A DNA stretch of 45,417 bases, taken from IMG/VR virus record IMGVR_UViG_2675903468_000006. One strand, written 5' to 3'. Positions within the stretch are counted from its first letter, which is position 1. The number at the start of each line of letters is the position of its first letter. Positions 29,947 to 45,417 of this stretch are shown piece after piece. The translations under genes were made by a program, and so were the position numbers. The notes under the pieces are model-generated. The model ran no database searches, was not told the DNA's origin, and saw only the letters and a program-made list of their open reading frames with translations. Source of the DNA: a virus (lineage: Duplodnaviria; Heunggongvirae; Uroviricota; Caudoviricetes).

Positions 29947-30242
29947 GGCTGTACCTCCTGCTGCGGTGCTGCAATTAGTTCTAGCGTGAAGCCGTCTTGC
30001 TTAAGACTATCAATGTAAGCCGCAGTTCTCCTGCGCTCGCCAGCACATGCCAGCGTTTCTGGGTCGTAAAACCACACCTTCATTCGGCTATTCCATGCAG
30101 AAATTGCTTCAGCCTTATTGCGCTTTAATGGCCCATGAGCACCACATTTGCAGTGGACGTAGCGCTTCTTTCCCATAATACTGAATGAGTAGCCAATACC
30201 AAGCGCTGTCGATTCGCAAAATGGGCAGAGTAGTGGAGTCAT
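29943..30242 (-). CDS. lar: Lar-family restriction alleviation protein
   Basis: N-terminal CPFC...CKCG zinc-ribbon arrangement, about 99 aa. Confidence 0.55.
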   Translation of the reverse strand: MTPLLCPFCESTALGIGYSFSIMGKKRYVHCKCGAHGPLKRNKAEAISAWNSRMKVWFYDPETLACAGERRRTAAYIDSLKQDGFTLELIAAPQQEVQP

Positions 30243-30943
30243 TTATCCTCCTGCTGAGGTGCTGCTGAAGATGCAAAAATATCAATCAGCGTATCTTCTC
30301 CCATGCTATTGCAATGAGCCTGAAGCCTATTGATGATTGCCTGAAGAGCAAACTTCGGAACCATATTTTCCTTACCTATCTGCGGGCAGTTTTCGGTACC
30401 GAACCAAAATTGCTCGATCTGCAGCAGCAGACCATTTTTGCCTTCAGTTGCACTGAATACGCCGAACGCTTCAATGTCGTATGCTTTCGCAATCACAGGA
30501 GAGTTGCCATCGGCACCCTGAAGCATGGCGGCGCGGCGCTCCCAGTCAGCTATTGCGGCTGAATGTTCCATCGAGTCGTCGCCAAACTCAGCATGTGCGC
30601 ACTCGTCTGCCGCATTGGCGGCAGTTTTCGCAATCGTCAAGAGATCTGACAGGAGCGAATCAGATATCGGTGCTGGCGGGGCGGTGTAAAGCGGCTCACA
30701 TTCCCAGCCTTGCTTTTGCCAGGATGCCAGGACATTTTTTGAATCTGTCAGAAGGCCGTGATTCTCGTAATAAAGCGATCGCCACGCCACAGGATCCGCT
30801 TCGAGAGATGCCAGCGCGATACGAAACACCTCTGCAGTCATGCTGCGAGGCGACTGATTGTCATGCGCTGGGTCGGTAAGGAAGCCAGTAATAAACGCCT
30901 TCAATTGCTGATTGTGAATATCGCGTTTGTCGATGTTGCTCAT
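30239..30943 (-). CDS. Hypothetical protein
   Basis: Start set at ATG after SD GGAGGA; the track's longer start is a TTG inside the SD. Confidence 0.45.
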   Translation of the reverse strand: MSNIDKRDIHNQQLKAFITGFLTDPAHDNQSPRSMTAEVFRIALASLEADPVAWRSLYYENHGLLTDSKNVLASWQKQGWECEPLYTAPPAPISDSLLSDLLTIAKTAANAADECAHAEFGDDSMEHSAAIADWERRAAMLQGADGNSPVIAKAYDIEAFGVFSATEGKNGLLLQIEQFWFGTENCPQIGKENMVPKFALQAIINRLQAHCNSMGEDTLIDIFASSAAPQQEDK

Positions 30944-31587
30944 TGGGCGGTCCTCCAACCTTCACATTCAATGTCACTGCAGCCATCGAAATCGTATGGA
31001 TTTAGCTGCCAGCTAATCTTTCCGCAGCAAGGGCAATTCCAGCGAACCTTACCGCTGCGTGATTTTTTTCGGTTGTGCTTTTTCAGCCACTCAGGCATGA
31101 CAAGCCCTGCCGCCTGAACCATGGTGCGTCGGTTAAACTCATTGATGCTGAACGTGCGGCGCTTAGCCTTGTCAGCTAAAGCAAAAGGAATCCAGACAAT
31201 GCCAGGCTCTGCCGTGTTGGCGGATACAAAAACGAATGCCTTACTGAAGTCGTCAGTTGGAAGGCCTCCATGTTGCAACCAGTACACATCGTTACCGTTC
31301 CAACTGCCTTTTTTGTAGGCCACATAGGACTCACAGCCAGGCTCAATAACACTTTCGGTAGGTATGTACTGACAATCGACATGCCAGACAGCCATGGAAT
31401 CAACACTGTCAGCGCAAACCGGCTGATCAATCTCTCTACCCAATTCCCAGCTTCTTTGAGCTTCTTCACGGGTGTACACGTGGGCGCGGTCTATATTGGA
31501 GCTATATCCGTTGCCGTTGTGGCAGTGGAATGACGCGTTACTGCCAACCGTTTCGCGAGTACAAAGCATGTAAAATCTATCGCTCAT
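30940..31587 (-). CDS. Hypothetical protein with C-terminal Cys cluster
   Basis: 215 aa; NCPCCG...C.IEC at the C-terminus. Confidence 0.45.
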   Translation of the reverse strand: MSDRFYMLCTRETVGSNASFHCHNGNGYSSNIDRAHVYTREEAQRSWELGREIDQPVCADSVDSMAVWHVDCQYIPTESVIEPGCESYVAYKKGSWNGNDVYWLQHGGLPTDDFSKAFVFVSANTAEPGIVWIPFALADKAKRRTFSINEFNRRTMVQAAGLVMPEWLKKHNRKKSRSGKVRWNCPCCGKISWQLNPYDFDGCSDIECEGWRTAQ

Positions 31588-32018
31588 GACTGCACTCCTT
31601 TGCGAAGCTCGTCGGCGAAGTTCTCAGCATCTGCGGCCATGCCAGCAGCCTCTTCAGACATCCTCATGCTTCGGCTACGCAGAGCCTGCTGTCGTTCTCG
31701 CTTATGTGCGGCAAACATCTCCACACCCTGCGCCCGCACTTCAGCCAGGAAAGCGTCGGTGGCTGGGGTTTTGACCTTATTCGCAGCGAACTCAATTTTT
31801 TCTTTCGTGTCTCTGCCGATTTCGCTTGAGCCCAACTTTCCGATGAAGCTAACGATTTGGTCAGGGAACTGCTTCAGCCCCGCATTCTCCGCAGCCAGCG
31901 CAGCGAATGTGGTTTCAAACACGTTAAGCAGAGTCGTAACTTCTGCCGGTGACATGTGCTCACCACATTCTGCATTCACCCTGGCGTTTTTAATCAGATC
32001 TTCGTATTTGTTGCTCAT
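31584..32018 (-). CDS. Hypothetical protein
   Basis: Start set at MSNKYEDL, adjacent to upstream stop. Confidence 0.45.
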   Translation of the reverse strand: MSNKYEDLIKNARVNAECGEHMSPAEVTTLLNVFETTFAALAAENAGLKQFPDQIVSFIGKLGSSEIGRDTKEKIEFAANKVKTPATDAFLAEVRAQGVEMFAAHKRERQQALRSRSMRMSEEAAGMAADAENFADELRKGVQS

Positions 32019-32314
32019 ACCCCTACCCTCCCCCAAACCATCAATACTCGCTTCATCGCCGCGCTGTTGCGGCACTCCTGAAATATTCCGTTGGTGCAGC
32101 TGCGCGCGGTACCATCTTGCTCTTCCGGCGTCGCCAGGCGGTAAGTCACCGTTCGCCAGACCTTGCTCACGCGCACAATCTTCCTGGCCCGCTCCAGATC
32201 GATAGCGTTCTTGGTGATGCAGTTGATGGTCATGACGCACTCTGTGGCCACATCCTTCGCAGTGAAGGTCCGGTGCGTTTCGAGATAACGCAGAATTGCC
32301 TGTTTGCCTTTCAT
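32015..32314 (-). CDS. Hypothetical small protein (possible winged-helix)
   Basis: 99 aa immediately downstream of helicase. Confidence 0.35.
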   Translation of the reverse strand: MKGKQAILRYLETHRTFTAKDVATECVMTINCITKNAIDLERARKIVRVSKVWRTVTYRLATPEEQDGTARSCTNGIFQECRNSAAMKRVLMVWGRVGV

Positions 32315-33747
32315 CAGAAGCCCCCTTTCTTTTTCGGCTGCTGCTCGCGCCCGCGACGTTCTGCGGCGGCGGCCTGCTGGTCTGTGTCGTAAATTGCCCC
32401 GTTAATCTGATTGCAATAAACCGTTCCGGTACTGCCGTGGCGGTTGAGTCGCAGGATTAACTCGGTTTCGCCCGGCGGCACGCTGTCATCGAAAGCACCT
32501 TCCCGGTGGATACCAACCCAGTAGTCGCAGTCCTGCTCAATCTGTCCTGTGTCGCGGGAATCACTCGGCAACGGGCGTTTATTCACTCGCTTCTCCAGTT
32601 CGCGGTTGAGCTGAGTCAGCAGCACGACGACGCAGCCAAGCTCTTTGGCCAGGTTCTTCAACCCTTTGGTGATCATCCCGTAGGCCAGGTCATTACGGTC
32701 TGCTTTTTCGGCGGTCATCAGCGTCAGGTAGTCAACCAGAATCATGCCTACGCAGCCTTTCTCGCGCTTAATTCGACGGCATTCGGTAACGATATGCGCC
32801 AGTGACAGGCCAGGAGTGTCGTCGATGTACAGCATGTCGATTTCACTCAGCCGCCCGGCTGTTGCGATCGCCTTCTTAAAGTCGCCGTCGTAGTCGCCCT
32901 GATACTGGTCATCGGCATCATCCGTGGCGGGCATGTAAAAAATGCTCGGGTTAATGCCCGACTTCTGACCAACCAGTTTTTCGAGGATCTGGTCGCCTGG
33001 CATTTCCAGGCTGAACATCAGCGCCGGCTTTTTCTCACGAACCGCGCAGTTGATCGCCATCTGCCCGTACAGGGTTGTTTTGCCCATTTTTGGCCTTGCG
33101 CCAATTACGAACAGAGAGCCTTTAACCAGACCTTTCGGCGCCAGCAGCCGGTCGAGTGACGGGATACCGGTACTCATGCCGCGCTGTTCGCCTGAGGGGT
33201 CAAATCGTTTTTCCAGATCTGCTACCCAGTCATCCATAACCTCGCCGAACGACCGCAACCCACGACGATTTCCGGTTTTTGAATGATCTGCGAGCTGGGT
33301 GAAGATACCCTGAATGGCCTCATACTTCTGCGTAGCGCTCATACCGTTGCGGGAATACAGCAGCTCAGTAGCTTCGGTCAGACGGTTGATACCGTAGCGC
33401 TCCATTGCGGCTTCCCGGACTGATTCTGCGTATGCCACGATGTTTGCTGCGCTTGGAGTGTTCTTGGCTATCTCCGCCAGGTAAGCAAAGCCACCTACCT
33501 GCTCCGCGAGCCCTTTTCCTTCAAGCGCGTCGAACAATGTCAGACCATCGACTGGCTTGTTGTCGCGGAACATCTGGCGCATCTCGGCAAAGATCAGCTG
33601 GTGAGGTCGGCTGTAGAACGACTCAGGCTTGAGCATCGCCAGAACCTTCTGGACTCGCTCGCTGTTGTCATCATCCAGCAGCAGGCCACCGATAACGCTC
33701 TGCTCCGCTTCGAGGTTTTGTGGCACAGCCATGAATTCAGCGGTCAT
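32314..33747 (-). CDS. Replicative DNA helicase (DnaB family)
   Basis: Walker A GARPKMGKT, DnaB-like N- and C-domains; SD GGGGG. Confidence 0.85.
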   Translation of the reverse strand: MTAEFMAVPQNLEAEQSVIGGLLLDDDNSERVQKVLAMLKPESFYSRPHQLIFAEMRQMFRDNKPVDGLTLFDALEGKGLAEQVGGFAYLAEIAKNTPSAANIVAYAESVREAAMERYGINRLTEATELLYSRNGMSATQKYEAIQGIFTQLADHSKTGNRRGLRSFGEVMDDWVADLEKRFDPSGEQRGMSTGIPSLDRLLAPKGLVKGSLFVIGARPKMGKTTLYGQMAINCAVREKKPALMFSLEMPGDQILEKLVGQKSGINPSIFYMPATDDADDQYQGDYDGDFKKAIATAGRLSEIDMLYIDDTPGLSLAHIVTECRRIKREKGCVGMILVDYLTLMTAEKADRNDLAYGMITKGLKNLAKELGCVVVLLTQLNRELEKRVNKRPLPSDSRDTGQIEQDCDYWVGIHREGAFDDSVPPGETELILRLNRHGSTGTVYCNQINGAIYDTDQQAAAAERRGREQQPKKKGGF

Positions 33748-34636
33748 CACGATCCCCCTCGCGCACTTCGATGTAGAGCTTTTCGGTCAGGAACTTATCG
33801 AATTTCATGCGGCGCCAGGTTTTCCCGGATTTCTGGTCTGGTCGGTCTTCAAGCATCCAGCGGCAGTTTTGAGCGATATATCGCAGATAGCTTCTGAAAC
33901 CGTCCATATCCATCGGCTTGCCGTCCAGGTTGCGGGCAATCTTGTTAGCCTTACCCCAGAAGGTGCGGATCAGATTGCGTCGCTCATCAGTGAGGCATCT
34001 CCATCCCCGGGCTTCAGGCAGTTCGTCTTTCAGGCATTGCCATACTTCATCGCATGACAAACGGGACTTTTTCTCTTCAGCGGGGTTCTGGTCATTTGCG
34101 ACATACTTACTACCTTTAGGTAGTAAGTTATTTAATATATTGTTATCTGTGGACACCGGCTGGACATCGGCTGGACACACATCCTCCACAGGCATTGTTA
34201 TTACTGCGTTTGCGCTGGACACTGGCTGGACATCGGCTGGACAAAAATTTGACTGATATTCGTCATATTTGACCACTTTTAGAACAGTAAAACGGTTGTT
34301 CGATTTGGTGGTGATCATGCCCAGATTCTGGAATTTACGGAGCAGTGATTTAACGCGATCAGCGGTCAAACCCGTTTCCATTGCCAGCGTGTTACGCCCG
34401 GTGATGAACTCGCCGCGCTCGCAGATCACATCGCCAACATCAGTCGATACCAGTGTCTGTTCGTGATTAGCGCGCAGGAGCAGGTGAACCCATAAATGAG
34501 CCGCCTCAGCGTCCTTGTAGAACGGCACATCCATAATTTTACGGTGCAGCAAGGCAAACCCCTTACCGTCATTCGTGCGCGGTTTCTGGAGCCTTCTGGC
34601 CTCTCTGGCTTCGGCTAAATTGGATACGTTACCCAC
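33737..34636 (-). CDS. Replication initiator (lambda O-like), contains origin iterons
   Basis: Internal protein repeat CPADVQPVS matching the DNA iterons; probable GTG start after SD AAGGAGA. Confidence 0.65.
   Translation of the reverse strand: MGNVSNLAEAREARRLQKPRTNDGKGFALLHRKIMDVPFYKDAEAAHLWVHLLLRANHEQTLVSTDVGDVICERGEFITGRNTLAMETGLTADRVKSLLRKFQNLGMITTKSNNRFTVLKVVKYDEYQSNFCPADVQPVSSANAVITMPVEDVCPADVQPVSTDNNILNNLLPKGSKYVANDQNPAEEKKSRLSCDEVWQCLKDELPEARGWRCLTDERRNLIRTFWGKANKIARNLDGKPMDMDGFRSYLRYIAQNCRWMLEDRPDQKSGKTWRRMKFDKFLTEKLYIEVREGDRDDR
34103..34243. repeat. Phage replication origin: 10-bp inverted repeat, AT-rich tract and about six CTGGACA-type iterons
   Basis: Iterons at about 10-bp periodicity in two clusters; inverted repeat CTTACTACCT/AGGTAGTAAG. 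Confidence 0.6.
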
Positions 34637-34865
34637 GGCCACTCTCCTTACGTTTCAATTCTTCCAGGATGGCGCGCATCTTCTCTGCCACAATCGGGTT
34701 AACCGAGCGGATGAAGCGGTCGCGGGCTATGTTTTTATGTACAGCGGTATGGTAATAGCGTGGATTTTTTGCCATTATTCCTCCTGCAATGAGTGCACAC
34801 GATTTGCATCTGAAGGCCAGTTCTGTTCGCGCAGACTGGCTTTCGCCATTTTTGATACTTCCCAT
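34629..34865 (-). CDS. Small coupled ORF between YdaT-like and O genes
   Basis: ATG overlaps upstream stop (TGATG); 78 aa. Confidence 0.3.
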   Translation of the reverse strand: MGSIKNGESQSARTELAFRCKSCALIAGGIMAKNPRYYHTAVHKNIARDRFIRSVNPIVAEKMRAILEELKRKESGRG

Positions 34866-35407
34866 CACATAACCCCCAGCATCGACGTGACCATCGTCAT
34901 CAGTGGGCCTACCTGCTCCGGCATGAGGCGGAACAGCGAAGCTATACCCTCGCTTACCTCTTTCAGCTTCTGATGCTCTGGGGCGTCCAAAAGCACGGCC
35001 TGTTTAGCTTCAGCACACTCTTTCATCGCAGAAGCGATCAGCGACATCGTGTCGTTCTGCGGCGCCAGGCGGTTGCGGTACTCCAGCGGCAATACGGACA
35101 TGATTGCGGGTGTCAGCTGGCGCACGTTCTCGCGGTACTGTTCGGAGTCGAAACGGTTATCCAGGAAGCGGAACAGCTTCTGGCGCGCACGGCTGATGTC
35201 GTCAGGAAAGCTGATGGCGGTCCCGCCCTGCTCCCGGTATTCGTTGATGATCAGTGCCGAAACGACGTCCTGATTGTCCAGCGCCGAAGACCATGCCCGG
35301 ACCGCATCGCGGATCTTTTCGTGGTCAGGCGCCGCCTTAGGTTGAGCGCGGTTTATCATCGCTCCCGGGTGTATTCCGGTATTGTGTTGATACGCAAGTG
35401 AATGCAT
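34865..35407 (-). CDS. YdaT-family regulatory protein (cII position)
   Basis: Segments NEYREQGG and LTPAIMSVLPLEYRNRL resemble Rac YdaT; sits directly after cro. Confidence 0.55.
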   Translation of the reverse strand: MHSLAYQHNTGIHPGAMINRAQPKAAPDHEKIRDAVRAWSSALDNQDVVSALIINEYREQGGTAISFPDDISRARQKLFRFLDNRFDSEQYRENVRQLTPAIMSVLPLEYRNRLAPQNDTMSLIASAMKECAEAKQAVLLDAPEHQKLKEVSEGIASLFRLMPEQVGPLMTMVTSMLGVM

Positions 35408-35424
35408 TGCTTTCCCTTTCGTGG

Positions 35425-35658
35425 TTAGGCCGCAGTATCACGCGGCGATGCGAATACCAGGCTTTCTTTTAGGACCGGAGCCTGGCGGTGAAAATTCTTC
35501 GTGCCTTTCTCGATAGCAGATGCCATTTCTGGAGATGCCCGGCGATTTCCGTAGGCGATCTGGTCCAGGTAACCTGGCGTCGTGTTAGCCAACTTTGCGA
35601 GCTGCGCCCATTCGTCGGTAGTGGCGGCCTTGCGCCAGCGGTGTAGTTCAGTGCTCAT
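35425..35658 (-). CDS. cro: Cro-like HTH regulator
   Basis: 77 aa, divergent from the repressor across the operator region; SD GGAG. Confidence 0.6.
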   Translation of the reverse strand: MSTELHRWRKAATTDEWAQLAKLANTTPGYLDQIAYGNRRASPEMASAIEKGTKNFHRQAPVLKESLVFASPRDTAA

Positions 35659-35690
35659 TGGTGTCTCCGGGTGAGTTGTTTGATTTGGAG

Positions 35691-35757
35691 TTTAGCGTTA
35701 TGCTAAATACTACGCAAGCATCATTTAGCAATTTGCACATTTATCATTTTGCTAAAA
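35691..35757. promoter_or_regulatory. Right operator region (OR), three sites of type TTTAGC-N5-GCTAAA
   Basis: Perfect site TTTAGCgttatGCTAAA plus two degenerate copies between cro and cI starts. Confidence 0.6.
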
Positions 35758-35774
35758 GCAGTAACAATGCAGGT

Positions 35775-36452
35775 ATGGAAAATAAAGAAATCAGAAAAGC
35801 CAACCTGGAAGCGCTGTACGAGAAGCGTCAGCACGAGTCTGGAATGACCAAAGCGCAGTTTGCCGAGCTCATCGAGACAAGTCCGGCTGCGCTTAGCCAG
35901 CTACTGGGACCAAACCCTCATCGCAATATCGGCGATAAGATGGCTCGCAAAATTGAAACTGCGCTTGATCTGCCTTTTGGCTGGATGGATGTTTTACACG
36001 CCAGTGAAGAACCTTCGAACGTTGCATTTCGAGGACTGAACGAGACAAAAGGAAGTTATCCTGTAATCAGCTGGGTAAGCGCGGGGCAATGGATGGAAGC
36101 TGTAGAACCTTATCACCGAAGAGCGATAGATCGCTGGTATGACACGACTGTTGACTGCTCAGAAGATTCATTCTGGCTGGACGTTAAAGGGGATTCTATG
36201 ACCTCCCCGGCTGGACTGAGCATACCCGAGGGAGCAGCGATACTTGTTGATCCTGAAGTCGAGCCGCGCAACGGAAAGCTGGTTGTCGCGAAGCTAGAAG
36301 GCGATAACGAAGCGACCTTTAAGAAGCTTGTAATCGATGCCGGCAGACGCTTCCTAAAGCCCCTTAACCCCGCATATCCAATGCTAGAAATTAATGGAAA
36401 CTGCAAAATCATCGGCGTTGTGGTTGATGCCAAAATACTAAACATCCCATAA
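35775..36452 (+). CDS. cI: CI-like repressor with C-terminal S24 (LexA-type) autopeptidase domain
   Basis: N-terminal HTH, C-terminal GDSM Ser and conserved Lys; start at MENKEIRK. Confidence 0.8.
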   Translation: MENKEIRKANLEALYEKRQHESGMTKAQFAELIETSPAALSQLLGPNPHRNIGDKMARKIETALDLPFGWMDVLHASEEPSNVAFRGLNETKGSYPVISWVSAGQWMEAVEPYHRRAIDRWYDTTVDCSEDSFWLDVKGDSMTSPAGLSIPEGAAILVDPEVEPRNGKLVVAKLEGDNEATFKKLVIDAGRRFLKPLNPAYPMLEINGNCKIIGVVVDAKILNIP

Positions 36453-36469
36453 CCTCACGCAAAACCCCT

Positions 36470-36497
36470 CAAGCCCGCCATCGCGCGGGCTTTTTTA
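36470..36497 (+). terminator. Intrinsic terminator after cI
   Basis: AGCCCGC-loop-GCGGGCT hairpin followed by T6. Confidence 0.6.
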
Positions 36498-36535
36498 CGT
36501 CCCGAATTCCTTCGCTGTAAATTTTTAATCGCTTA

Positions 36536-36610
36536 TTAATCAATACGCTAAATAAAACCATTCAACAATTTAGCATTTTGCTATTGCGCATAATTTAGCA
36601 TCACGCTAAA
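36536..36610. promoter_or_regulatory. Left operator region (OL), three sites of the same TTTAGC-N5-GCTAAA type
   Basis: Perfect site TTTAGCatcacGCTAAA plus two degenerate copies. Confidence 0.55.
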
Positions 36611-36807
36611 TTCACCCCATCGAAACGAAACATCGACAGCTGAGCGAAGTTAGCCAGCGGCGAAGTGGAGATTCGGTCAGTCGAACGGCGCGACAGTAAA
36701 CCATGCGTCGGACCATAGGCGGGCTCAGGAAGAGCGGCAATTATGGCTAAACGATTTACCAGCAGCTCTTTGCGAGGGGCTGACGGTAAACAATCAGAGG
36801 GGTGTAT

Positions 36808-37149
36808 ATGTCAGATAAAAAAATGGCGCCACTACTGCTCAATGTAGACGCCAGCGAAGTGCTTACCCAGACCGGGGAGCTTTTAAAGTTACTTGAACTT
36901 CCAGCCAGCTCCTTTCAGGGAATTCCTGAGCATGTCGTCGATCTGTTTTTTGACCGTGTCCGTGGCCTGATTGACAACATCGTCCTTAGTGATTTCGCGA
37001 CCACAGTCAGCACAACTGACGCCGGTGAAATTTGTCTCAAAGTCAAAATCATCGGGCTGGTTGAACATCTCACTTCCGCAGTCAGGGCACACGGTCCGCA
37101 TGGTTTGCATGAACATATCCTTTCTACTGTTGGGGAGCTTAAAGAGTAA
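36808..37149 (+). CDS. Hypothetical first early-left ORF (N position, no Arg-rich motif)
   Basis: ATG with SD AGAGGGG; overlapped by a zinc-ribbon ORF on the other strand, so coding strand is unresolved. Confidence 0.35.
   Translation: MSDKKMAPLLLNVDASEVLTQTGELLKLLELPASSFQGIPEHVVDLFFDRVRGLIDNIVLSDFATTVSTTDAGEICLKVKIIGLVEHLTSAVRAHGPHGLHEHILSTVGELKE
36889..37110 (-). CDS. Candidate zinc-ribbon protein antisense to the first early-left ORF
   Basis: Paired C-[PA]-D-C-G motifs (VCPDCG ... SCADCG) and Lys-rich tail. Confidence 0.35.
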   Translation of the reverse strand: MQTMRTVCPDCGSEMFNQPDDFDFETNFTGVSCADCGREITKDDVVNQATDTVKKQIDDMLRNSLKGAGWKFK

Positions 37150-37338
37150 GCGATTTCTTGCTGTTGGGGAATAGCGGGAAAGCGCGCGCCGGGCGCGGAT
37201 AAATACCCCGGCAATAACTGGAATGTTTTGTAGTGCAGTGAATTGCAGCTGCATCGACGGCAACCGGAAGATAAGCACCCGGCGCTGCACCACAAAGCAT
37301 TTCTCCCGCATCAGCGGGTAACGACAGAGGGTAAGTCA

Positions 37339-38007
37339 ATGATTCGTCTTAACAACGAAATTAAAAATCAGCTATGCCATAACCTGCTTCTCGCATCCCC
37401 ATTGTTTGAGAAAGCGAAAGCTGCGGTTAATGAGAGGGCGAAAATTGTTGAAGAAATTCGACAGGCATTGCTCAAGCAGGAAAACACTAGCGATGAGCAA
37501 ATAACTAAGGCTCGGGAAGATTTCAAAGATAACTCCTTCATCAAGATGAAGGTCGGCGCTAAAACTGCAATTTTAAAGGTCATTATTAATGGTGAGTATC
37601 ACGAATTAGCCAGGAACGGTTTGGATCATCGCTATCGCCACCGTGGAAAACATATTGGTAAGCACGATCTTGAAAGCGACCTGTTCTTCGGAGCTTCCTT
37701 CGCGCCTGTAATTGATTCGGGTTTCGTTCCTGAAAGTTACAGCACGCTGAAGAAAGTTGGAAAATTACACGACCGACTCACTGAATCGACGGTAACCATC
37801 AACGTTCTTTACGATGAAGTTGATGCCTTCCAATTGCAGGTTAAAGGTGCTCTAACCAAAGTCTCAACTGTTAAAAAACTGGCTGAGATGTGGCCTGAGG
37901 CAGTGCCATATTTGCCTGAGGTGGAACGCCGTGAAGCGACCAGCACCGCACTTGCCATTCCCGTTGAAACGCTAAACGCCCTTTGCGGCATACCAAAGAA
38001 TGAATGA
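37339..38007 (+). CDS. Hypothetical 222-aa protein, AT-rich moron immediately downstream of OL
   Basis: SD GAGGGTAAG; own terminator; no recognisable family. Confidence 0.55.
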   Translation: MIRLNNEIKNQLCHNLLLASPLFEKAKAAVNERAKIVEEIRQALLKQENTSDEQITKAREDFKDNSFIKMKVGAKTAILKVIINGEYHELARNGLDHRYRHRGKHIGKHDLESDLFFGASFAPVIDSGFVPESYSTLKKVGKLHDRLTESTVTINVLYDEVDAFQLQVKGALTKVSTVKKLAEMWPEAVPYLPEVERREATSTALAIPVETLNALCGIPKNE

Positions 38008-38028
38008 CCCGCTCCGGCGGGTTTTTTA
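38008..38028 (+). terminator. Intrinsic terminator after the 222-aa gene
   Basis: CCCGC-TCCG-GCGGG hairpin followed by T6. Confidence 0.6.
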
Positions 38029-38168
38029 TCGGCCATACATAGGCATATTTTCGAGTCTGCCCATTTATGACAACCGGCGGCCATCCACCGCCCATTGAAA
38101 CACTGAATAAATGCGTTGAAGTCTTGTATTAACCGTTCCGTTCGCCGCGATAAGGCCAAGAGGAAATC

Positions 38169-38297
38169 ATGGTAAACCAGCAGCAGATCAGAGAGGCCCA
38201 ACGGCTCGCGTCGTTCGCGGTGCTCCATCGCAATGCTCCGGCGTGGGAAGAAGCAAAACGCCTTTACGCCGTCGCCATCGGGAGGACTCTTCACTGA
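38169..38297 (+). CDS. Small coupled ORF (42 aa)
   Basis: SD AGAGGA; stop overlaps next ATG (TGATG). Confidence 0.3.
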   Translation: MVNQQQIREAQRLASFAVLHRNAPAWEEAKRLYAVAIGRTLH

Positions 38298-38494
38298 TGG
38301 AAACTTTATTCGCACTCGTCCTGACCGTGGCAATGACCAACGGTGATTATCAGGATGTCATTCTCGGCGTTTACGACAGCCAGCAGGAATGCAGCCTGGC
38401 AGCTACAGAGCAGAAAGTGTCAGCTGAGTGCTGGCCGGTAGAAAGCATCATCCGCAACGGCGAGTTCCCGGCGAAATCCATCGCGCAGCAGTAA
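38297..38494 (+). CDS. Small protein with signal-peptide-like N-terminus (65 aa)
   Basis: METLFALVLTVAMTNG hydrophobic N-terminus. Confidence 0.4.
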   Translation: METLFALVLTVAMTNGDYQDVILGVYDSQQECSLAATEQKVSAECWPVESIIRNGEFPAKSIAQQ

Positions 38495-38564
38495 CCACCC
38501 TATTCAACCGATCGGCCTGGCATTACGCGGGCGGGATCTGCACATCCAAATTTCAGGAGAAACC

Positions 38565-39536
38565 ATGAGCGAAGTAACGGACTTAACTGTCATCGAAATC
38601 AAGCCGGAACAGGCCCCAGTGCTTTACGTAGCGGGCGGCCTTGACGCGTACCTTGAGCAAATCCGCCAGGCTGTAAACGAAGTGCCGGACCTGTCCACGA
38701 AGAAAGGCCGTGACCGTGTTGCCTCTCTGGCAGCGCAGGTGTCCCGCAGCAAGACGGCAATCGAAAAGCCGGGCCGTGAGTACCTGAAGCGCCTGAAAGA
38801 GGCTGTGCGTCCGGCTGAGGCCGAAATTAAGCGATTCGTTGATGCCTGCGACGAGCTGCGCGATGCGACCCGCCGCCCACTCACCGAATGGGAAGCCGAG
38901 CAGGAACGCATTAAGGCTGAAGAAGCCATGAACGCGATGCACGCCGAAGCGCTGGAGATGAACATCAGGTTCGATCAGGAACTGGCTGCCAAGTTCGAAG
39001 CGGACCACGAAATGGCTCTACTGATGAACAAGGATTTTGACCGTGACCGCGAAGAGCAGCGCCGTCTGGCGGAACAGGCTCAGCGTGAACGTGATGAGCG
39101 GCTGAAACAGGAAGCGGCAGAACAAGCCCGCCGCGATGCCGAAGCGAAGCACAAAGCGGAGATTGAAGCCGCAGCGCGCCGTGAAGCCGAAGAGAAAGCC
39201 CGCGCTGAACTGGCGGAGCGCCAGTGCGTCGAAGCGGAACAGCGTGCAGCTCGCGAGAAGCAGGAAGCGGAAGCCCGGGCGGAACGCGAAAAAGCCGCGG
39301 CGGTTGAAGCCGAGCGCCTGAAGGCCAAACAGGCCGAAGATGCCCGCCTGGCCGAAGAGAAGCGCCTCGCCGATGAGCAGGCAAAGCGTGAAGCTGACGT
39401 TAAGCACCGCAAGACGGTCGGCACCAACATCGTTAACGCGCTCACCAGCCAAACCAGCTTAACCCGCGAGCAGGCTATCGAAGTGCTTACCGCTCTGAAA
39501 GATGACCTGATCCCCTGCGCGAAAATTCATTACTGA
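38565..39536 (+). CDS. Hypothetical protein with long Glu/Arg/Ala-rich coiled-coil region
   Basis: 323 aa upstream of RecT; overlapping antisense ORFs are low-complexity artefacts. Confidence 0.5.
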   Translation: MSEVTDLTVIEIKPEQAPVLYVAGGLDAYLEQIRQAVNEVPDLSTKKGRDRVASLAAQVSRSKTAIEKPGREYLKRLKEAVRPAEAEIKRFVDACDELRDATRRPLTEWEAEQERIKAEEAMNAMHAEALEMNIRFDQELAAKFEADHEMALLMNKDFDRDREEQRRLAEQAQRERDERLKQEAAEQARRDAEAKHKAEIEAAARREAEEKARAELAERQCVEAEQRAAREKQEAEARAEREKAAAVEAERLKAKQAEDARLAEEKRLADEQAKREADVKHRKTVGTNIVNALTSQTSLTREQAIEVLTALKDDLIPCAKIHY

Positions 39537-39543
39537 GGCAACC

Positions 39544-39828
39544 ATGAACGCATACCTCACTTACGACCGCATCGAAGATCGGCGCTGGGCTGAGCAGCAG
39601 ATCACCGACGAGAAAGAGAAGTGGATCGACGACCGGGCGCAGAAAATCATCGACATGATGCCTAAAGAGCCGTCCGGCCTCTTCCACTTCACGATCCCGA
39701 TAGACTCCAGCCCATACGAAGGGCTTCGCAGCGATAAAGCTGGCGAGGCCTACAACGATTTCATTTCGGTAGTTGCTTACGCCCAGGCGGAATACGACTG
39801 GGAACACCGTACCGGCTGCCCGTTTTAA
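39544..39828 (+). CDS. Hypothetical protein
   Basis: 94 aa directly upstream of RecT. Confidence 0.4.
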   Translation: MNAYLTYDRIEDRRWAEQQITDEKEKWIDDRAQKIIDMMPKEPSGLFHFTIPIDSSPYEGLRSDKAGEAYNDFISVVAYAQAEYDWEHRTGCPF

Positions 39829-39846
39829 TTTTTGAGGGATTTAACA

Positions 39847-40593
39847 ATGAGTACTGCACTTTCCACCATGGCCGGGAAACTGGCCGCACGCCTCGGCATG
39901 GATGCCGGTACAGACCTGATGAATACGCTGAAGAATACAGCGTTCAAAGGTGGCAACGTCACGGACGAGCAGTTTACAGCCCTGTTGATCGTCGCCAACC
40001 AGTACGGCCTGAACCCATGGACCAAAGAGATTTACGCATTCCCAGATAAAGGCGGGATTGTCCCGGTCGTCGGCGTTGATGGATGGGCTCGCATTATCAA
40101 CGAGCATCCTCAGTTTGACGGCATGGAGTTCTCTTACGACAAGGAGGAAGGCGCGTGTACCTGCAAGATTTACCGCAAAGACCGTAAGCACCCGACCATC
40201 GTCACCGAGTACATGGGAGAGTGCAAACGCAACACTCAGCCATGGCAGTCCCACCCTACCCGCATGCTTCGCCACAAGACGCTGATCCAGTGCGCGCGTC
40301 TGGCCTTTGGTTTCGCTGGCATCTTCGACCAGGACGAGGCAGAGCGAGTAATTGAAGGAACAACGGCAGAGGTTCATGCGGGCCATGAATCAGATAGCCG
40401 CCGCCCGGAACTGATCGCAAAAGGTGAGTCCGCCGCGCGCCTTGGAACCGTTAAGTATCAGGAGTTCTGGGTGGCGCTGAGCGCCGAAGAGAAACAGGTG
40501 ATCGGCGCAGTTGAGAAACGACGCATGTATGACATGAGTCTTGCTGTCGACAACGCCGAACCTGTCAATGTCGCAGAGACGGAGGCTGAATGA
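39847..40593 (+). CDS. recT: RecT-family single-strand annealing recombinase
   Basis: RecT-like sequence; start set at MSTALS with upstream SD; followed by YqaJ-type exonuclease. Confidence 0.8.
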   Translation: MSTALSTMAGKLAARLGMDAGTDLMNTLKNTAFKGGNVTDEQFTALLIVANQYGLNPWTKEIYAFPDKGGIVPVVGVDGWARIINEHPQFDGMEFSYDKEEGACTCKIYRKDRKHPTIVTEYMGECKRNTQPWQSHPTRMLRHKTLIQCARLAFGFAGIFDQDEAERVIEGTTAEVHAGHESDSRRPELIAKGESAARLGTVKYQEFWVALSAEEKQVIGAVEKRRMYDMSLAVDNAEPVNVAETEAE

Positions 40594-41207
40594 TAGAGCA
40601 ACGCACCCCTGAATGGTTTGCTGCGCGCTGCGGCAAGGTCACAGCCAGTCGCCTGGCTGATGTCATGGCCCGGACTAAGTCGGGCTACTCCACCAGCCGC
40701 CAGAACTACATGGCCGAGCTGATTTGCCAACGGCTGACCGGGAAGCTGGAGGAAGGGTTTTCGAATGCCGCGATGATGCGCGGCACTGAACTTGAGCCAG
40801 TGGCACGCGAAATGTACGCGCTGAATGAGTTCAATGCGGAAATCACTGAAGTTGGACTCATCGATCACCCAACCATACCCGGATTCGCAGCCAGCCCGGA
40901 CGGACTTGTAAACGACGACGGGCTTATCGAAATCAAATGCCCCAATACCTGGACCCATATCGAAACGCTGAAAACCGGTGAACCAAAGCGCCAGTACATG
41001 CTGCAAATGCATGCACAGATGATGTGCACCGGGCGGAAATGGTGTGATTTCGTTAGTTTCGATGATCGCCTGCCGCCTGACCTCGCCTATTTCAAGAAGC
41101 GTATTCATTTCGATGAAGAGCTGGCGCGCGAAATCGAGTCTGAGGTTAAGACCTTCCTTGCAGATCTGGAATCTGAAATTCAGAAAATCACAGAGCGTGC
41201 AGCATGA
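40590..41207 (+). CDS. YqaJ-type viral recombinase exonuclease
   Basis: PD-(D/E)xK-like motifs (ASPDG, IEIKCP); overlaps RecT stop. Confidence 0.8.
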   Translation: MIEQRTPEWFAARCGKVTASRLADVMARTKSGYSTSRQNYMAELICQRLTGKLEEGFSNAAMMRGTELEPVAREMYALNEFNAEITEVGLIDHPTIPGFAASPDGLVNDDGLIEIKCPNTWTHIETLKTGEPKRQYMLQMHAQMMCTGRKWCDFVSFDDRLPPDLAYFKKRIHFDEELAREIESEVKTFLADLESEIQKITERAA

Positions 41208-41292
41208 AGGCACTCATCACCCGGGAGCTTAAAGCTCCTTTTTTATTGCTGGCGTTCACCTTCAACCGAATTAACCGACAGTTCCGGGAGCA

Positions 41293-41517
41293 TTGACCAT
41301 GGACATCATCGATACCGCAGCAGAGATTGAAGAGCTTCAGCGTAACGCTGCCCTTTCCGCTCACCGCATCGACCGTAATGCCGTTTCAGCGGAGCATTGC
41401 GAAGAATGCGACGAACCAATTCCCGAACCGCGGCGCGCTGCCGTTCCCGGCTGCCAGACGTGTGCAGAGTGCCAATCCGTCATCGAGCTGAAGAATAAGC
41501 AAAGGGGGTTGCAGTGA
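41293..41517 (+). CDS. TraR/DksA-family C4 zinc-finger protein
   Basis: CEECDEP...CQTCAECQ four-Cys arrangement, 74 aa. Confidence 0.6.
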   Translation: MTMDIIDTAAEIEELQRNAALSAHRIDRNAVSAEHCEECDEPIPEPRRAAVPGCQTCAECQSVIELKNKQRGLQ

Positions 41518-42182
41518 AAGAGCGCGGAATGATTTTCAACGGCGAGATGGTGCGCGCCATCCTCGACGGCAAAAAGACGCAGACGCGGCGCATCATGAAG
41601 GTTCAGCCGACTGATGGTTTCCACCCAACGCATAACGGTTACGATCTGGATTTAAACGCACACTGGTACACACCTGGCGTGATCGATAAAAACGGATACC
41701 TGCAACCTGCAAAGAAAGATGCATTTGGCGTTGCTGATGAGAATGAAGGCTATACCTGCCCGTTCGGTGCCGTCGGCGATCGCATCTGGGTGCGCGAAAC
41801 GTGGGCTGAAGCTGGTGCTGGCGCGCCGGACCTGAAACTTTATCGCGCGGATTACCCTGAGCATGTTCCAACTCATTACGAGAATGTGCCGCTGGCTGAT
41901 GAAATACGCTGGACGCCTTCGATTCACATGCCGCGCTGGGCTAGTCGTCTAACTCTGGAGATTACCGGAGTGCGAGTTGAGCGATTGCAGGCCATTACCC
42001 TTGGGGATATCTGTAAGGAAATCGGCTGCGGTCTTTACGACTTCCGCCCTGCTACTTATGGCTTTCAGGTGTGGGAAGAACTGTGGAAGTCCATCTACGG
42101 CGAAGAAAACTGGCAGGCCAACCCCTGGGTCTGGGTAATCGAATTTAAGGTGGTGCCCAATGTTCAGGATAATCCAGCCTAA
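41514..42182 (+). CDS. ASCH/PUA-like domain protein (tentative)
   Basis: N-terminal MIFNGEMVRAILDGKKTQTRR resembles the ASCH G-[KR]-K-T-x-T-x-R signature. Confidence 0.4.
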   Translation: MKERGMIFNGEMVRAILDGKKTQTRRIMKVQPTDGFHPTHNGYDLDLNAHWYTPGVIDKNGYLQPAKKDAFGVADENEGYTCPFGAVGDRIWVRETWAEAGAGAPDLKLYRADYPEHVPTHYENVPLADEIRWTPSIHMPRWASRLTLEITGVRVERLQAITLGDICKEIGCGLYDFRPATYGFQVWEELWKSIYGEENWQANPWVWVIEFKVVPNVQDNPA

Positions 42183-42474
42183 TACCTGGTACGCCGATCC
42201 CCACGGCGCGTCCTGCAAAATCCTCCGCGCTACCCACGAAGTAATCCACTACATCCGCAACGGTCGCACCTGCATCGCCAGCATTGGCCGCTTTCAACAT
42301 GAATTCGAGCCGCTGACCAAAGCACAGGCTGAGCGGATCGCCGAAGAAATCGAAACAGCAAAGCACATCGAAAAATTAAGGAGCATGAGACGTGATCGGA
42401 ATACTCAAGCCGGTACCGGAATCGCAATGGCCGGTACGATGCCACGACCCCAAGCGGAGCAACGTGTGGGCTAA
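42160..42474 (+). CDS. Hypothetical protein
   Basis: 104-aa ORF overlapping neighbours at both ends. Confidence 0.35.
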   Translation: MFRIIQPNTWYADPHGASCKILRATHEVIHYIRNGRTCIASIGRFQHEFEPLTKAQAERIAEEIETAKHIEKLRSMRRDRNTQAGTGIAMAGTMPRPQAEQRVG

Positions 42475-42733
42475 CTCTTACTTTCTTGTTCAGGAGTTTC
42501 AGGAAGAGAACGGTGTTATTCGCCTGACGGTGAACACCACCAGCATTGGCAGCTCTGGCCGGTGGAAGGATGGCATCAGTTGGGATGCATTGCAGGAGAT
42601 AAAGTCAGCCGTTGGCTATGGGGATCGGGATGCCGTGGAGATTTACCCGCGGGATTATGATGTGGTGAACGTGGCGAACATGCGCCACCTGTGGATTACG
42701 CCGGAGCCAATTAGCTTCGCCTGGCGGAAGTAA
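42392..42733 (+). CDS. Hypothetical protein
   Basis: GTG start with SD AAGGAG. Confidence 0.4.
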   Translation: MIGILKPVPESQWPVRCHDPKRSNVWANSYFLVQEFQEENGVIRLTVNTTSIGSSGRWKDGISWDALQEIKSAVGYGDRDAVEIYPRDYDVVNVANMRHLWITPEPISFAWRK

Positions 42734-42823
42734 ACAGCATCAGCGCATCGCCGTGTGGCGGGTGACATCCCGCCAAATAACGACGATCAACTGAACATCA
42801 ACACATTATATGTACATACGACC

Positions 42824-43915
42824 ATGAACATTCAGATCAAAACACTATCTGTCCGAATTAAAGACAAGCACGCAGCCGTTTTGCGGCAGATGGCCTTTGA
42901 GGTCAATCAGATCTTTAATCTGGCAAACGAGATAACCAGCGCAGCATACGGCAACGCTGGCTTTTTTGGCGCGCAAAAACCGCAATGGCTATCGGCGTTT
43001 GATGTTCAGAAACCGCTCCTTAAAGAGCGAAAAGAGCGCGGGTATACCATCCCCAGCCATACCGTACAGGAAATCGCAGCAATTCACGGCAAGGCACGGA
43101 AGCAATTTAAACGCTCTCGCTTACGCTGGCGAGTCAGTGGGGGATCTCGCCGTTCGTTGGGTTGGGTGCCGTTTAAAATAGGCAGCGCTGTCTGGAAAAA
43201 TGGCGCGGTGCGGTTCGCTGGCAGGATTTTTAATGTCTGGGATAGCTACGGCTTGGGAGGATTTAAATTCCGTGCTGGAAGCTTTTCAGAAGACAGCCGT
43301 GGACGCTGGTACTTCAATGTTTGCGTAGAGGTCGAAACTGTCCCATCAACGGCCACTTCCGCCGTGGGTATCGATTTAGGGCTGAAAGACTACGCCACCC
43401 CGTCAGAAGGTGATCCGCTGATTGCCGGTAGATTCTATCGAGATCTGGAGCCTGCATTAGGAAAGGCACAGCGTGCAAACAAAAAAGCCCGTGTACGCGC
43501 CATACACGCCAAAATTAAGAACCGCCGCAAAGATGCCCTGCACAAGTACAGCACGGCGCTGGTTAACAGCCATGCGGCAATATTCGTAGGCGACGCGAGC
43601 AGTAAGAAACTGGTTAAAACCAAAATGGCAAAAAGCATTTTGGACGCTGGCTGGTTCATGCTCAAAACACAACTGGAATATAAAGCGATTGCGCGGTCAG
43701 TGGTGTTTGAAGTGGTCAACGAAAGTTATTCCACCCAAGCTTGTTCGTGTTGCGGGGCTATCTCCGCCAACAGTCCGAAAGGTAGAGCAGGCCTGCGAAT
43801 AAGAGAATGGACTTGTTGTGAGTGCGGAACCACTCATGACCGCGACGTGAACGCCGCAAAGAACATTCTCGCGGCGGGGCATCGCCGTCTAGCTGTAGGA
43901 ATCCCCTTCCTTTAG
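42824..43915 (+). CDS. tnpB: TnpB (IS200/IS605 OrfB; RuvC-like RNA-guided nuclease family)
   Basis: RuvC-I GIDLGLKDYAT, zinc ribbon CSCCG...CCECG, RuvC-III HDRDVNAAKNI. Confidence 0.85.
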   Translation: MNIQIKTLSVRIKDKHAAVLRQMAFEVNQIFNLANEITSAAYGNAGFFGAQKPQWLSAFDVQKPLLKERKERGYTIPSHTVQEIAAIHGKARKQFKRSRLRWRVSGGSRRSLGWVPFKIGSAVWKNGAVRFAGRIFNVWDSYGLGGFKFRAGSFSEDSRGRWYFNVCVEVETVPSTATSAVGIDLGLKDYATPSEGDPLIAGRFYRDLEPALGKAQRANKKARVRAIHAKIKNRRKDALHKYSTALVNSHAAIFVGDASSKKLVKTKMAKSILDAGWFMLKTQLEYKAIARSVVFEVVNESYSTQACSCCGAISANSPKGRAGLRIREWTCCECGTTHDRDVNAAKNILAAGHRRLAVGIPFL

Positions 43916-43998
43916 GACGGGGAGGATGTCAAGCAACTGATAGCCAGTTATGAGCTGGCTATTGGGTGCGAAAGCACTGCTCAGTTATCCCCCATTTT

Positions 43999-44027
43999 GC
44001 CCGGCCCCGCGCCGGGCGCTCTTTTTC
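43999..44027 (+). terminator. Hairpin plus T-run after tnpB (terminator or right-end hairpin of the IS)
   Basis: GCCCGGC-CCCGC-GCCGGGC followed by gctcttttt. Confidence 0.5.
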
Positions 44028-44039
44028 TGGAGATCACAG

Positions 44040-44255
44040 ATGAATGACAGCATCCTGGTTACAAGCGAAATCCTTGCGCGCTACAAAATATCGCGCAGCA
44101 CGCTCTATTTCTGGAGCACTCCCGCACGTATGCCATCCAGCTTTTCATGCCCATTCCCGAAACCAACCATCCCCGGAAATCCGAAGCGCTGGCGTGAGTC
44201 AGAAATCAAGTCATGGGAAGACAAGGTCAACTTTGCTAAAGGGGATACCCAATAA
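44040..44255 (+). CDS. AlpA-family excisionase / transcriptional regulator
   Basis: ISRSTLYFW and PKRWRESEIKSWE resemble AlpA; SD GGAG; convergent with int. Confidence 0.65.
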   Translation: MNDSILVTSEILARYKISRSTLYFWSTPARMPSSFSCPFPKPTIPGNPKRWRESEIKSWEDKVNFAKGDTQ

Positions 44256-45417
44256 TCTCCTGCAAATGCTTCTGCCAGATATCCAGCCATTCATGCTGAT
44301 CGTCCATATAGTCATGAAGGTTGTATCTGGCCATAACCCCGCCCATCTGATGTCCGAGCAACTTTTCTATAACGTGTGGTGGAGCGCCAAGCTCGGACAG
44401 GCGCGTGGCCACCGTTCTCCGCAAATCATGTAATGACCACTCCTTCATTCCGTTCTTACGCACTACCTGCATTGAGTACGTCGAGACAAGCGTCTGCCCA
44501 GGTGGGACATCTTCTTTATCCCGGAACTGTGCTGGAGTCAGAACGTGCTTAGTGATTGATCCGCGTTGATGCTCTTGCAGAAGCCTGACCGCAGTATCCG
44601 GCAACGCACGACGAATAGTTTTACCGGTCTTATAATCCTCTGCCGGCACAGTCCAGGACCTTTCTTTGAAATCGAACCACTCCCATCTCGACTTTCTTAT
44701 TTCTGCGGCGCGGCATCCGGTTAGAATCATGAACCTGATTACCAGTTGTTGAGAGGGAGGCAGAGAGAAAAGAGTATCCCACACCTGCTTTATCTCACTA
44801 TCTGAAAGCCGCCTCTCCTTCATCTTCGCTGCTATACCGACATCCGATTTTCGTAACGACTCCAGTGGATTGGTTTTGATTACTCCCCTGTTGTGGCAGA
44901 ACCGGAAAGCACGCTTGGTCAGAGACAGCATCTCACCTGATATGACACTCCTCCCCATTGCATCGAAAACCTCAAGCCAGTTCGCCTTCACTGTCTGGTC
45001 CACAATAGCCTTCCCTAGCCGCGGGCTAATGTGCTTTTTGAAGCTTTTACCGTTCGCATCAATTTTAATGAGCCCCTCCGGGATACAGTAATGCTTCACC
45101 CAGTACTCATAGGCCTCATCGACTGTCAGCGCTTCTATTCTTTCAGCCTTCTCCACCAGCACTTTCTGCCGGGGATCATACCCCTCGCTCAACCACGCTC
45201 TGAACTGCTGTCTTCTGTCTCTCGCCTGAGAGAGTGAAATAGTTGGATAGTCACCAATGCTTAACTGCACAGGCTTGCCCTGCCAGCGATACCGATAGAA
45301 GAATGTGATAGAACCGGTTATGCTTAGACGCACATTCAGTCCGTTTGAATCAGAGAGAACCTCAACCTTCTCCCTGCGCTTTCCGAGCGACTTTCGTAAC
45401 TTAGTATCTGTGAGCAC
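44236..45417 (-). CDS. int: Tyrosine integrase (P4-like), start at or just beyond the window edge
   Basis: C-terminal HDLRRT ... LGH ... Y catalytic signature; N-terminus LTDTKLRK typical of P4-type integrases. Confidence 0.85.
   Translation of the reverse strand: MLTDTKLRKSLGKRREKVEVLSDSNGLNVRLSITGSITFFYRYRWQGKPVQLSIGDYPTISLSQARDRRQQFRAWLSEGYDPRQKVLVEKAERIEALTVDEAYEYWVKHYCIPEGLIKIDANGKSFKKHISPRLGKAIVDQTVKANWLEVFDAMGRSVISGEMLSLTKRAFRFCHNRGVIKTNPLESLRKSDVGIAAKMKERRLSDSEIKQVWDTLFSLPPSQQLVIRFMILTGCRAAEIRKSRWEWFDFKERSWTVPAEDYKTGKTIRRALPDTAVRLLQEHQRGSITKHVLTPAQFRDKEDVPPGQTLVSTYSMQVVRKNGMKEWSLHDLRRTVATRLSELGAPPHVIEKLLGHQMGGVMARYNLHDYMDDQHEWLDIWQKHLQEIIGYPL

Follow-up and report, generated by a model that had tools for sequence, protein, structure and literature searches.

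What takes the place of the antitermination protein N in a lambdoid phage that has no recognisable N gene, and what is the gene that sits where N would be expected? The question is raised by positions 36620 to 38035 of IMG/VR virus record IMGVR_UViG_2675903468_000006 (Caudoviricetes), whose whole stretch of 45,417 nucleotides (nt) we call the window. An initial annotation, made from the sequence alone, had described there an accessory locus immediately downstream of the left operators (OL), with a 222-amino-acid (aa) open reading frame (ORF) as its first gene-sized unit. The window is a lambdoid prophage whose positions 36400-38200 match the E. coli L73 chromosome at 100% identity, and its plus strand runs in the leftward direction, that of the early-left promoter (PL). 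We read the locus as the start of the early-left (PL) operon in a mosaic lambdoid prophage with RNA-based antitermination, and the 222-aa ORF as an immediate-early gene of the Nmad5 family, a joint reading to which we assign a probability of roughly 0.6. The put RNA is near-identical to a published annotated element and the Nmad5 protein is already named in RefSeq. What appears to be previously undescribed is that N is replaced exactly, that the junction used for exchange is conserved and that a zinc-ribbon gene lies antisense; these points are refinements.

Leader and antiterminator RNA of the early-left transcript

Directly downstream of the OL operators, on the sense strand and ~60 nt past the predicted PL start, lies a 77-nt putL RNA core (36677-36753) that consists of a stem I with a 5' pseudoknot strand followed by a stem II. 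The whole of 36614-37237 is ~98% identical to phage HK639 (GenBank HM208537), and the putL region is 98% identical across 156 nt that include the annotated "putL-like antiterminator RNA" of that phage. The equivalent of this 126-nt feature in the window is 36686-36811 (plus strand; coordinates transferred from L001 2570-2695), and 125 of its 126 bases are identical when counted on the alignment. HK639 further shares the position of putL after PL, the leader, the zinc-ribbon module and the terminators, but its operators and repressor differ from those of the window and its cassette is a different gene, HK639_44 (149 aa, no family). Positions 36679-36741 of the core show 79.4% identity over 63 nt to HK022 putL (the putL annotated in phages O276 and HK75) and 84% identity to elements of Erwinia phage phiEt88 and of P22-like phages of Salmonella.

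The secondary structure is supported by covariation. We collected 120 IMG/VR contigs with the stem I pattern and aligned their 32 distinct variants on the HK022 structure, for which the reference, including the 5' pseudoknot strand, comes from cryo-electron microscopy (PMC9378689). Across the 32 distinct sequences 93.3% of cells were paired, 115 cells were changed on both sides compared with 39.8±6.5 in shuffles, and the covariation score of 0.367 was reached by 0 of 500 shuffles, with slid partners giving at most 0.081. Ten pairs had changes on both sides and eight of these fall in stem II, where 8 of the 13 pairs covary; stem I was mostly fixed by the search pattern, which left only two of its pairs free to vary. 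In the window itself, two pairs of stem II do not match when read in the HK022 register but pair once the register is shifted. The -10-like AACCAT element, proposed to cause a sigma-dependent pause (PMC9378689), is retained at put positions 23-28.

A covariance model scored 36677-36753 at 86.7 bits, a value to be read knowing that this sequence was in the training set, and scored HK022 putR, which was outside it, at 36.5 bits. Over the whole window the model found no second put (putR), the next best site reaching 10.6 bits (E 0.86), and the cro-to-cII gap is only 17 nt (35408-35424). With this single match, the phage has putL without putR. It resembles HK022 in its homologous stems I and II with compensatory changes, in the retained AACCAT, in lacking N and in carrying a gene other than N after putL, but HK022 has the second copy putR and its putL starts at about +3 of the transcript, as against ~60 nt downstream here. 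Positions 30000-45417 had no meaningful match among the 4227 families of Rfam 15 at E up to 1, and none at all over 36677-36753, so put RNA is apparently not represented in that database; the weak Trp_leader and isrK matches are simply the two terminators.

Three operator-like TTTAGCnnnnnGCTAAA sites with 0 to 2 mismatches lie at 36536-36552, 36569-36585 and 36594-36610, where the initial annotation had placed OL, and three more with 0 to 3 mismatches form OR in the cro-cI gap (35691, 35724 and 35740). With both operator clusters located, PL transcription can be taken to begin near 36620. The putative PL, together with some 45 nt from the start of the early-left transcript, occupies a segment (CCATCGAAACGAAACATCGACAGCTGAGCGAAGTTAGCCAGCGGCG; 36579..36664, plus strand) that aligns with the "putative pL" annotated in HK639 and with the phi80 PL transcript start, just past the annotated -10. 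The exact -35 and -10 hexamers are putative, being our own reading at a place where a consensus promoter scan made no call.

The search for N itself agrees with the initial annotation, which had seen no N-like protein. The N_peptide family PF25694 had no match on the local plus-strand ORFs, with N of the lambdoid prophage L143 recovered as a positive control at E 2e-13, and tblastn of the whole 45-kb window with HK022 Nun and with the N proteins of lambda, phi80 and L143 gave only E > 0.5. In the described put mechanism the nascent RNA binds the beta' zinc-binding domain of RNA polymerase, which becomes resistant to intrinsic and Rho-dependent terminators (PMC9378689). We attribute the missing N and boxB to antitermination by putL through this known mechanism, and consider it very likely that the absence of N is explained in this way. 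King et al. 2011 reportedly showed read-through dependent on the beta' zinc-binding domain for HK639. With putL, the apparent anomaly of a lambdoid phage without N disappears, as the window belongs to a put-type phage with a mechanism described for HK022 and HK639. In operation, putL would let PL transcription pass the terminator at 38006-38031 and the hairpin at 38076-38092 and continue into gamL, bet and exo.

A variant of the leader occurs elsewhere in IMG/VR. Two sequence variants from three contigs (L074 and L091) have put stem I followed directly by CGCTCTTTAACAA, which replaces stem II and reads as a perfect rrn-type boxA; the arrangement looks like a hybrid of put and nut/boxA.

The Nmad5 gene and the N slot

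The 222-aa ORF (37339..38007, plus strand) exists as the initial annotation described it, with a GC content of 0.448 compared with 0.526 for the window, a GAGGG Shine-Dalgarno sequence 7 nt upstream of the ATG and its own terminator. By sequence comparison its product is confidently a full-length member of the known Nmad5 family: residues 2-219 match positions 1-206 of the 206-position Pfam profile PF18757 (E 9.8e-31, 107.9 bits against a cut-off of 27), the protein matches phrog_1965 (function unknown) at E 2.7e-49, and RefSeq and the Prokaryotic Genome Annotation Pipeline (PGAP) name it "Nmad5 family putative nucleotide modification protein" (WP_057780817.1). The start codon is that of PGAP, and the Pfam match opens at residue 2. 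Pfam and PHROGs gave only Nmad5 and this family of unknown function, no PADLOC family matched at E up to 0.1, and NCBIfam had no match. The conserved residues of the family are present (WP 185-186, N213, G217 and P219, invariant or nearly so in alignments of 34 and 137 members); the invariant W, P and N do not look like a catalytic set. An AlphaFold2 model reached a predicted local distance difference test (pLDDT) score of 89.1 with the 137-sequence alignment and was poor with 25 sequences (pLDDT 62.7). The initial annotation had held that confident homology to a housekeeping early gene would refute its defence reading, and the evidence on Nmad5 comes close to this. A sequence-profile search of the PDB found nothing below E 0.17.

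The gene ends in an intrinsic terminator (38006-38031, plus strand) with a 7-bp stem (38006-38023; five G-C pairs) followed by TTTTTAT, and the identical terminator in HK639 is annotated there as the first. On its left the gene is preceded by a 48-nt junction (37291-37338, plus strand) that contains the hairpin CCCGC-ATCA-GCGGG (37305-37318) and then the Shine-Dalgarno GAGGG (37327-37331). The 43 nt that lead up to the start codon of Nmad5 (CAAAGCATTTCTCCCGCATCAGCGGGTAACGACAGAGGGTAAG) recur in front of that of phi80 N. The junction also precedes HK639_44, a small ORF of E. coli XJ5.2, COBRASIX_50 and several unrelated cassettes in IMG/VR contigs, and it is read as "KAFLPHQRVTTEG" in over-extended ORFs; standing before unrelated first genes in many lambdoid phages, it looks like a common translation start and recombination joint for cassette exchange. 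On the right, a second junction (beginning TTATGACAACCGGCGGCCATCCACCG; 38065-38170, plus strand) with the hairpin GGCGG-CCATCCA-CCGCC (38076-38092) is near-identical in phi80 and XJ5.2, and it matches phi80 from just past the N terminator tL1A. HK639 shares only the first ~30 nt of this junction, where its second terminator is annotated, and the rho-dependent tL1B of phi80 lies another ~45 nt downstream, past the point where its similarity to the window ends.

Because the left and right flanks are the same, the Nmad5 gene with its terminator replaces phi80 N and tL1A exactly, and the view of the initial annotation that an accessory locus stands in place of N is borne out. The likeness to phi80 thus takes in the transcript start, the 43 nt before the start codon and the right junction from just after tL1A, with the difference that putL, the zinc-ribbon module and Nmad5 take the place in the window of the nutL leader and N of phi80. 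In HK639 these flanks enclose its unrelated 149-aa gene, and in E. coli XJ5.2 a 60-aa ORF. CobraSix has the same left junction before a 212-aa zinc-ribbon protein; this protein, gene 50, which follows put, was checked as a possible Nmad5 and rejected. HK022 carries the exclusion gene nun behind putL, with a promoter of its own, whereas the Nmad5 gene of the window has no detectable one. Among viral contigs, the first ORF after put fell into 57 clusters across 114 put-bearing loci, and of the 99 contigs with enough downstream sequence only 2 have Nmad5 after put. The N slot is a hot spot of cassette exchange bounded by a conserved 48-nt junction. We suggest that putL would make N dispensable and so leave the slot of phi80 N free for a swapped-in Nmad5 cassette.

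Nmad5 occupies the N slot under a different leader in E. coli YPE10 (L007 2553-3798), which has the same repressor and immunity region. Its leader was considered as an HK022-type put and rejected, as it is the put-free nutL leader of the phi80 type, 99.5% identical. The covariance model found no put in YPE10 and no N is annotated nearby; this prophage may be defective, or may obtain antitermination otherwise. Downstream of Nmad5 its genes are Rac-like (kil, ydaE and RecE).

Expression and role of the Nmad5 protein

Placed upstream of the first terminator and behind the ribosome-binding junction of phi80 N, the Nmad5 gene should give an immediate-early product. Upstream of Nmad5, the window and YPE10 have nothing in common but the 48-nt junction, and since phi80 N and unrelated cassettes use this junction too, a promoter private to Nmad5 is unlikely; a strict and crude scan of 36400-38600, which also missed PL, found no sigma-70-like promoter. 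We infer that the gene is probably an immediate-early gene transcribed from PL, which would be expressed once PL is derepressed, as phi80 N is, and would be silent in the stable lysogen. The Dhillonvirus homologue was reported too toxic to clone (PMC11846954), which would argue against constitutive expression in a lysogen to the extent that a protein only 26% identical can speak for this one.

Nmad5 is a common phage protein without a structural match, tied to replication modules and linked in one publication to escape from the Tmn defence, and the present prophage makes it accessible in a tractable E. coli background. Its close relatives are rare (131 clusters at E up to 1e-3 in an exhaustive profile-free search of 1.8 billion representative proteins). 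By tblastn, homologues 26-33% identical occur in 188 phage records, most of them Escherichia phages, with Dhillonvirus-type genomes dominating the best-scoring rows and Guernseyvirinae, Edwardsiella phage eiAU and Vibrio phages also found. Dhillonvirus and Guernseyvirinae are virulent. The homologues of the Dhillonvirus (SM_S22), Guernseyvirinae and M6-like phages resemble the window protein over its full length, in the N-terminal helix and in the C-terminal WPE...LNxxxGLP motif, but at only 26-33% identity, and that of SM_S22 differs in an N-terminal extension and in its place among head genes. M6-like Nmad5 sits with thymidine-modification enzymes, whereas the window Nmad5 is a PL-operon cassette of a temperate phage.

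Gene neighbourhoods bear on the function. Nmad5 is the first gene of an early operon leading to DNA polymerase in vB_SenTO17, and in VLCpiS11a the second gene of one leading to an exonuclease, a gp2.5-like annealing protein and DNA polymerase. Five metagenomic phage contigs have one gene order in common, in which a PD-(D/E)XK exonuclease (DUF2800) and an Enc34 single-stranded-DNA-binding protein (detected in 4 of the 5) come before Nmad5 and DNA polymerase A after it; these contigs are mutually related and so are not five independent observations. In lambdoid prophages Nmad5 is always in the PL operon, upstream of GamL/Bet/Exo in the window, RecE in YPE10 and Erf/SSB in L143, where the gene is 81% identical and lies downstream of a genuine N. 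We tentatively propose, with synteny as the only basis, that Nmad5 could have an accessory role in the replication or recombination of phage DNA, acting as a non-enzymatic helical protein alongside the exonuclease, single-strand-binding or annealing protein and DNA polymerase that surround it in these neighbourhoods.

Several findings weigh against this account. The promoter scan behind the statement that Nmad5 has no promoter of its own is crude, and elsewhere the slot does hold genes expressed in the lysogen, such as nun of HK022; the gene also resembles many morons in being richer in AT than the sequence around it and in carrying its own terminator. The synteny with replication modules is drawn largely from one related phage group, and the Dhillonvirus homologue lies beside capsid and head genes on the opposite strand. 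Finally, a K-to-E missense change in the distant Dhillonvirus Nmad5 gives escape from Tmn and its deletion does not (PMC11846954), a result that hints at a link with host immunity rather than replication.

This last result bears most directly on the alternative that Nmad5 is an immediate-early counter-defence protein that neutralises a host restriction or abortive-infection system. Escape by substitution but not by deletion fits a changed inhibitor specificity, and three further points agree with it: the gene is the first to be translated from the early operon, both here and in vB_SenTO17, its slot is hypervariable, and the family is widely spread in virulent phages. Such a role is played by lambda Ral, encoded just downstream of N. 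Nmad5 bears no likeness to known anti-defence proteins in Pfam or PHROGs, however, and its stable synteny between the genes for single-strand-binding protein and DNA polymerase would be unusual for a mobile anti-defence gene. Inhibition was not shown by the authors of the Tmn study (PMC11846954), and on balance we regard a counter-defence role as rather unlikely, though the best placed of the rival explanations. A broader version, in which Nmad5 would be a widespread immediate-early class engaging host immunity as inhibitors or decoys with specificity shifting by point mutation, and in which the slot after the antiterminator would be a dedicated exchange site with the hairpin and Shine-Dalgarno junction as its joint, seems to us more doubtful again.

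The initial annotation had instead favoured a superinfection-exclusion or defence gene, that is, a moron expressed from the prophage in the lysogen. The variable cassette, low GC content and terminator are what such a gene would show, nun of HK022 acts in the lysogen from its own promoter behind putL, and phage S9-5 has an annotated superinfection-exclusion gene adjoining its put. The slot also invites the comparison with ral and sieB of lambda and sieB of P22, which are small accessory genes lying directly after N in the repressor-proximal part of the PL operon, but Nmad5 has no such match in Pfam, PHROGs or PADLOC. With membership in the Nmad5 family, relatives mainly in virulent phages, which form no lysogens, a replication-module context, no defence-family match and no promoter-like site in the scan that also missed PL, the proposal is poorly supported; its upstream junction is that of phi80 N, a PL-transcribed early gene, and the homologue reported as toxic on cloning (PMC11846954) fits poorly with it. 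We consider a lysogen-expressed exclusion gene improbable, and prefer the reading of Nmad5 as an immediate-early gene under PL.

The family name itself suggests a component of a DNA base-modification pathway, and in M6-like phages Nmad5 does head a thymidine hypermodification cassette (aGPT-Pplase, kinase, radical SAM and pyridoxal phosphate enzymes) upstream of DNA polymerase (PMC9476957). From cI to just past exo, the annotated genes around Nmad5 in the window are those for the zinc-ribbon protein, a DUF1482 protein, a phrog_1376 protein, GamL, Bet, Exo and a TraR/DksA regulator, with no nucleotide-modification enzyme among them. The annotated surroundings of the homologues likewise include none, be it in VLCpiS11a, vB_SenTO17, SM_S22 and Bas95, in the five metagenomic contigs or in the remaining lambdoid prophages, and with conserved residues that do not look catalytic this role is very unlikely here. 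Least probable of all, to the point of being barely worth entertaining, is that Nmad5 is a protein antiterminator or processivity factor substituting for N. It does occupy the exact N slot, and the leader before it in YPE10 is a nutL of the phi80 type, where annotation shows no N close by; against this, the window already carries putL, Nmad5 and a real N coexist in L143, the protein is unlike all four N and Nun proteins tested, and the location among head genes in Dhillonvirus misfits a role at the start of an early operon.

The antisense zinc-ribbon gene and neighbouring features

The initial annotation had taken the 222-aa ORF for the first gene-sized unit after OL, and this needs correction, as the putL RNA and a minus-strand gene precede it. 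The latter, at 36889-37107, encodes an ECs_2282-family zinc-ribbon protein (~70 aa, CxxC...CxxC) and runs antisense to PL transcription. It matches NCBIfam NF047912 at 83.3 bits against a cut-off of 37, and PGAP calls it on the minus strand in E. coli L73. An ORF in the PL sense (36802-37149, plus strand, 113-115 aa; HK639_45 "unknown", L001 2686-3033) overlaps it in the same codon register. Compared with a Klebsiella phage homologue, the zinc-ribbon frame has 12, 7 and 25 substitutions at the three codon positions and keeps 52 of 71 aa, against 47 of 71 in the opposite frame. The homologue of the zinc-ribbon protein in phage KP12, 42% identical, retains both CxxC motifs, and the PL-sense ORF has no match in that phage; nor did the PL-sense ORF match any family in Pfam, NCBIfam or PADLOC, with only a weak hit to phrog_29546 (E 7e-4). 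Downstream of put in IMG/VR contigs, all 10 of 10 zinc-ribbon homologues are antisense to put.

Given the family match, the codon pattern and the conserved CxxC motifs, the real gene is most likely the antisense zinc-ribbon one. The PL-sense ORF, considered as the first PL gene, was rejected in favour of this better-supported frame, and on the sequence evidence it is probably not a gene. The PL-sense ORF is nevertheless the one annotated in HK639 and in several records of Klebsiella and Enterobacter phages; these annotations, HK639_45 included, are probably the wrong strand of the zinc-ribbon gene. Because it alone here runs against PL, the zinc-ribbon gene is more plausible than Nmad5 as a gene expressed in the lysogen. 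The zinc-ribbon protein also has a weak PADLOC match to the candidate PDC-M14A (E 7e-6), on which we do not rely.

The boxA-like sequence near 36770 noted in the initial annotation is present, as GCTCTTTG at 36765-36772, but it does not appear to be a nut element. It lies within a predicted stem-loop (TTTACCAGCAGCTCTTTGCGAGGGGCTGACGGTAAA; 36755-36790) outside the conserved put core, which ends near 36753, although the 126-nt "putL-like" feature of HK639 takes this hairpin in. ENT1 has the same hairpin and zinc-ribbon module with a phi80-type leader and no put, from which it follows that the hairpin belongs to the gene module after it. We infer that the GCTCTTTG hairpin is the 3' hairpin of the minus-strand zinc-ribbon gene and not a nut boxA.

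On the repressor side of OL, the terminator scan placed a terminator at 36471-36492, behind the gene for the LexA-family repressor, whose end is at 36452. The minus strand carries cro, a YdaT-domain gene at the cII position, an O-like gene and a DnaB-like helicase gene. The gene at the cII position (34865-35407, minus strand) is named "toxin YdaT domain-containing" by PGAP and stands in place of a lambda-type CII. On the other side, between the terminators and gamL, bet and exo (38298-39536), lie the DUF1482 gene and a gene for a 323-aa Glu/Ala/Arg-rich protein (phrog_1376, function unknown), and L143, with its 81%-identical Nmad5 locus, also has a 323-aa gene at the corresponding place.

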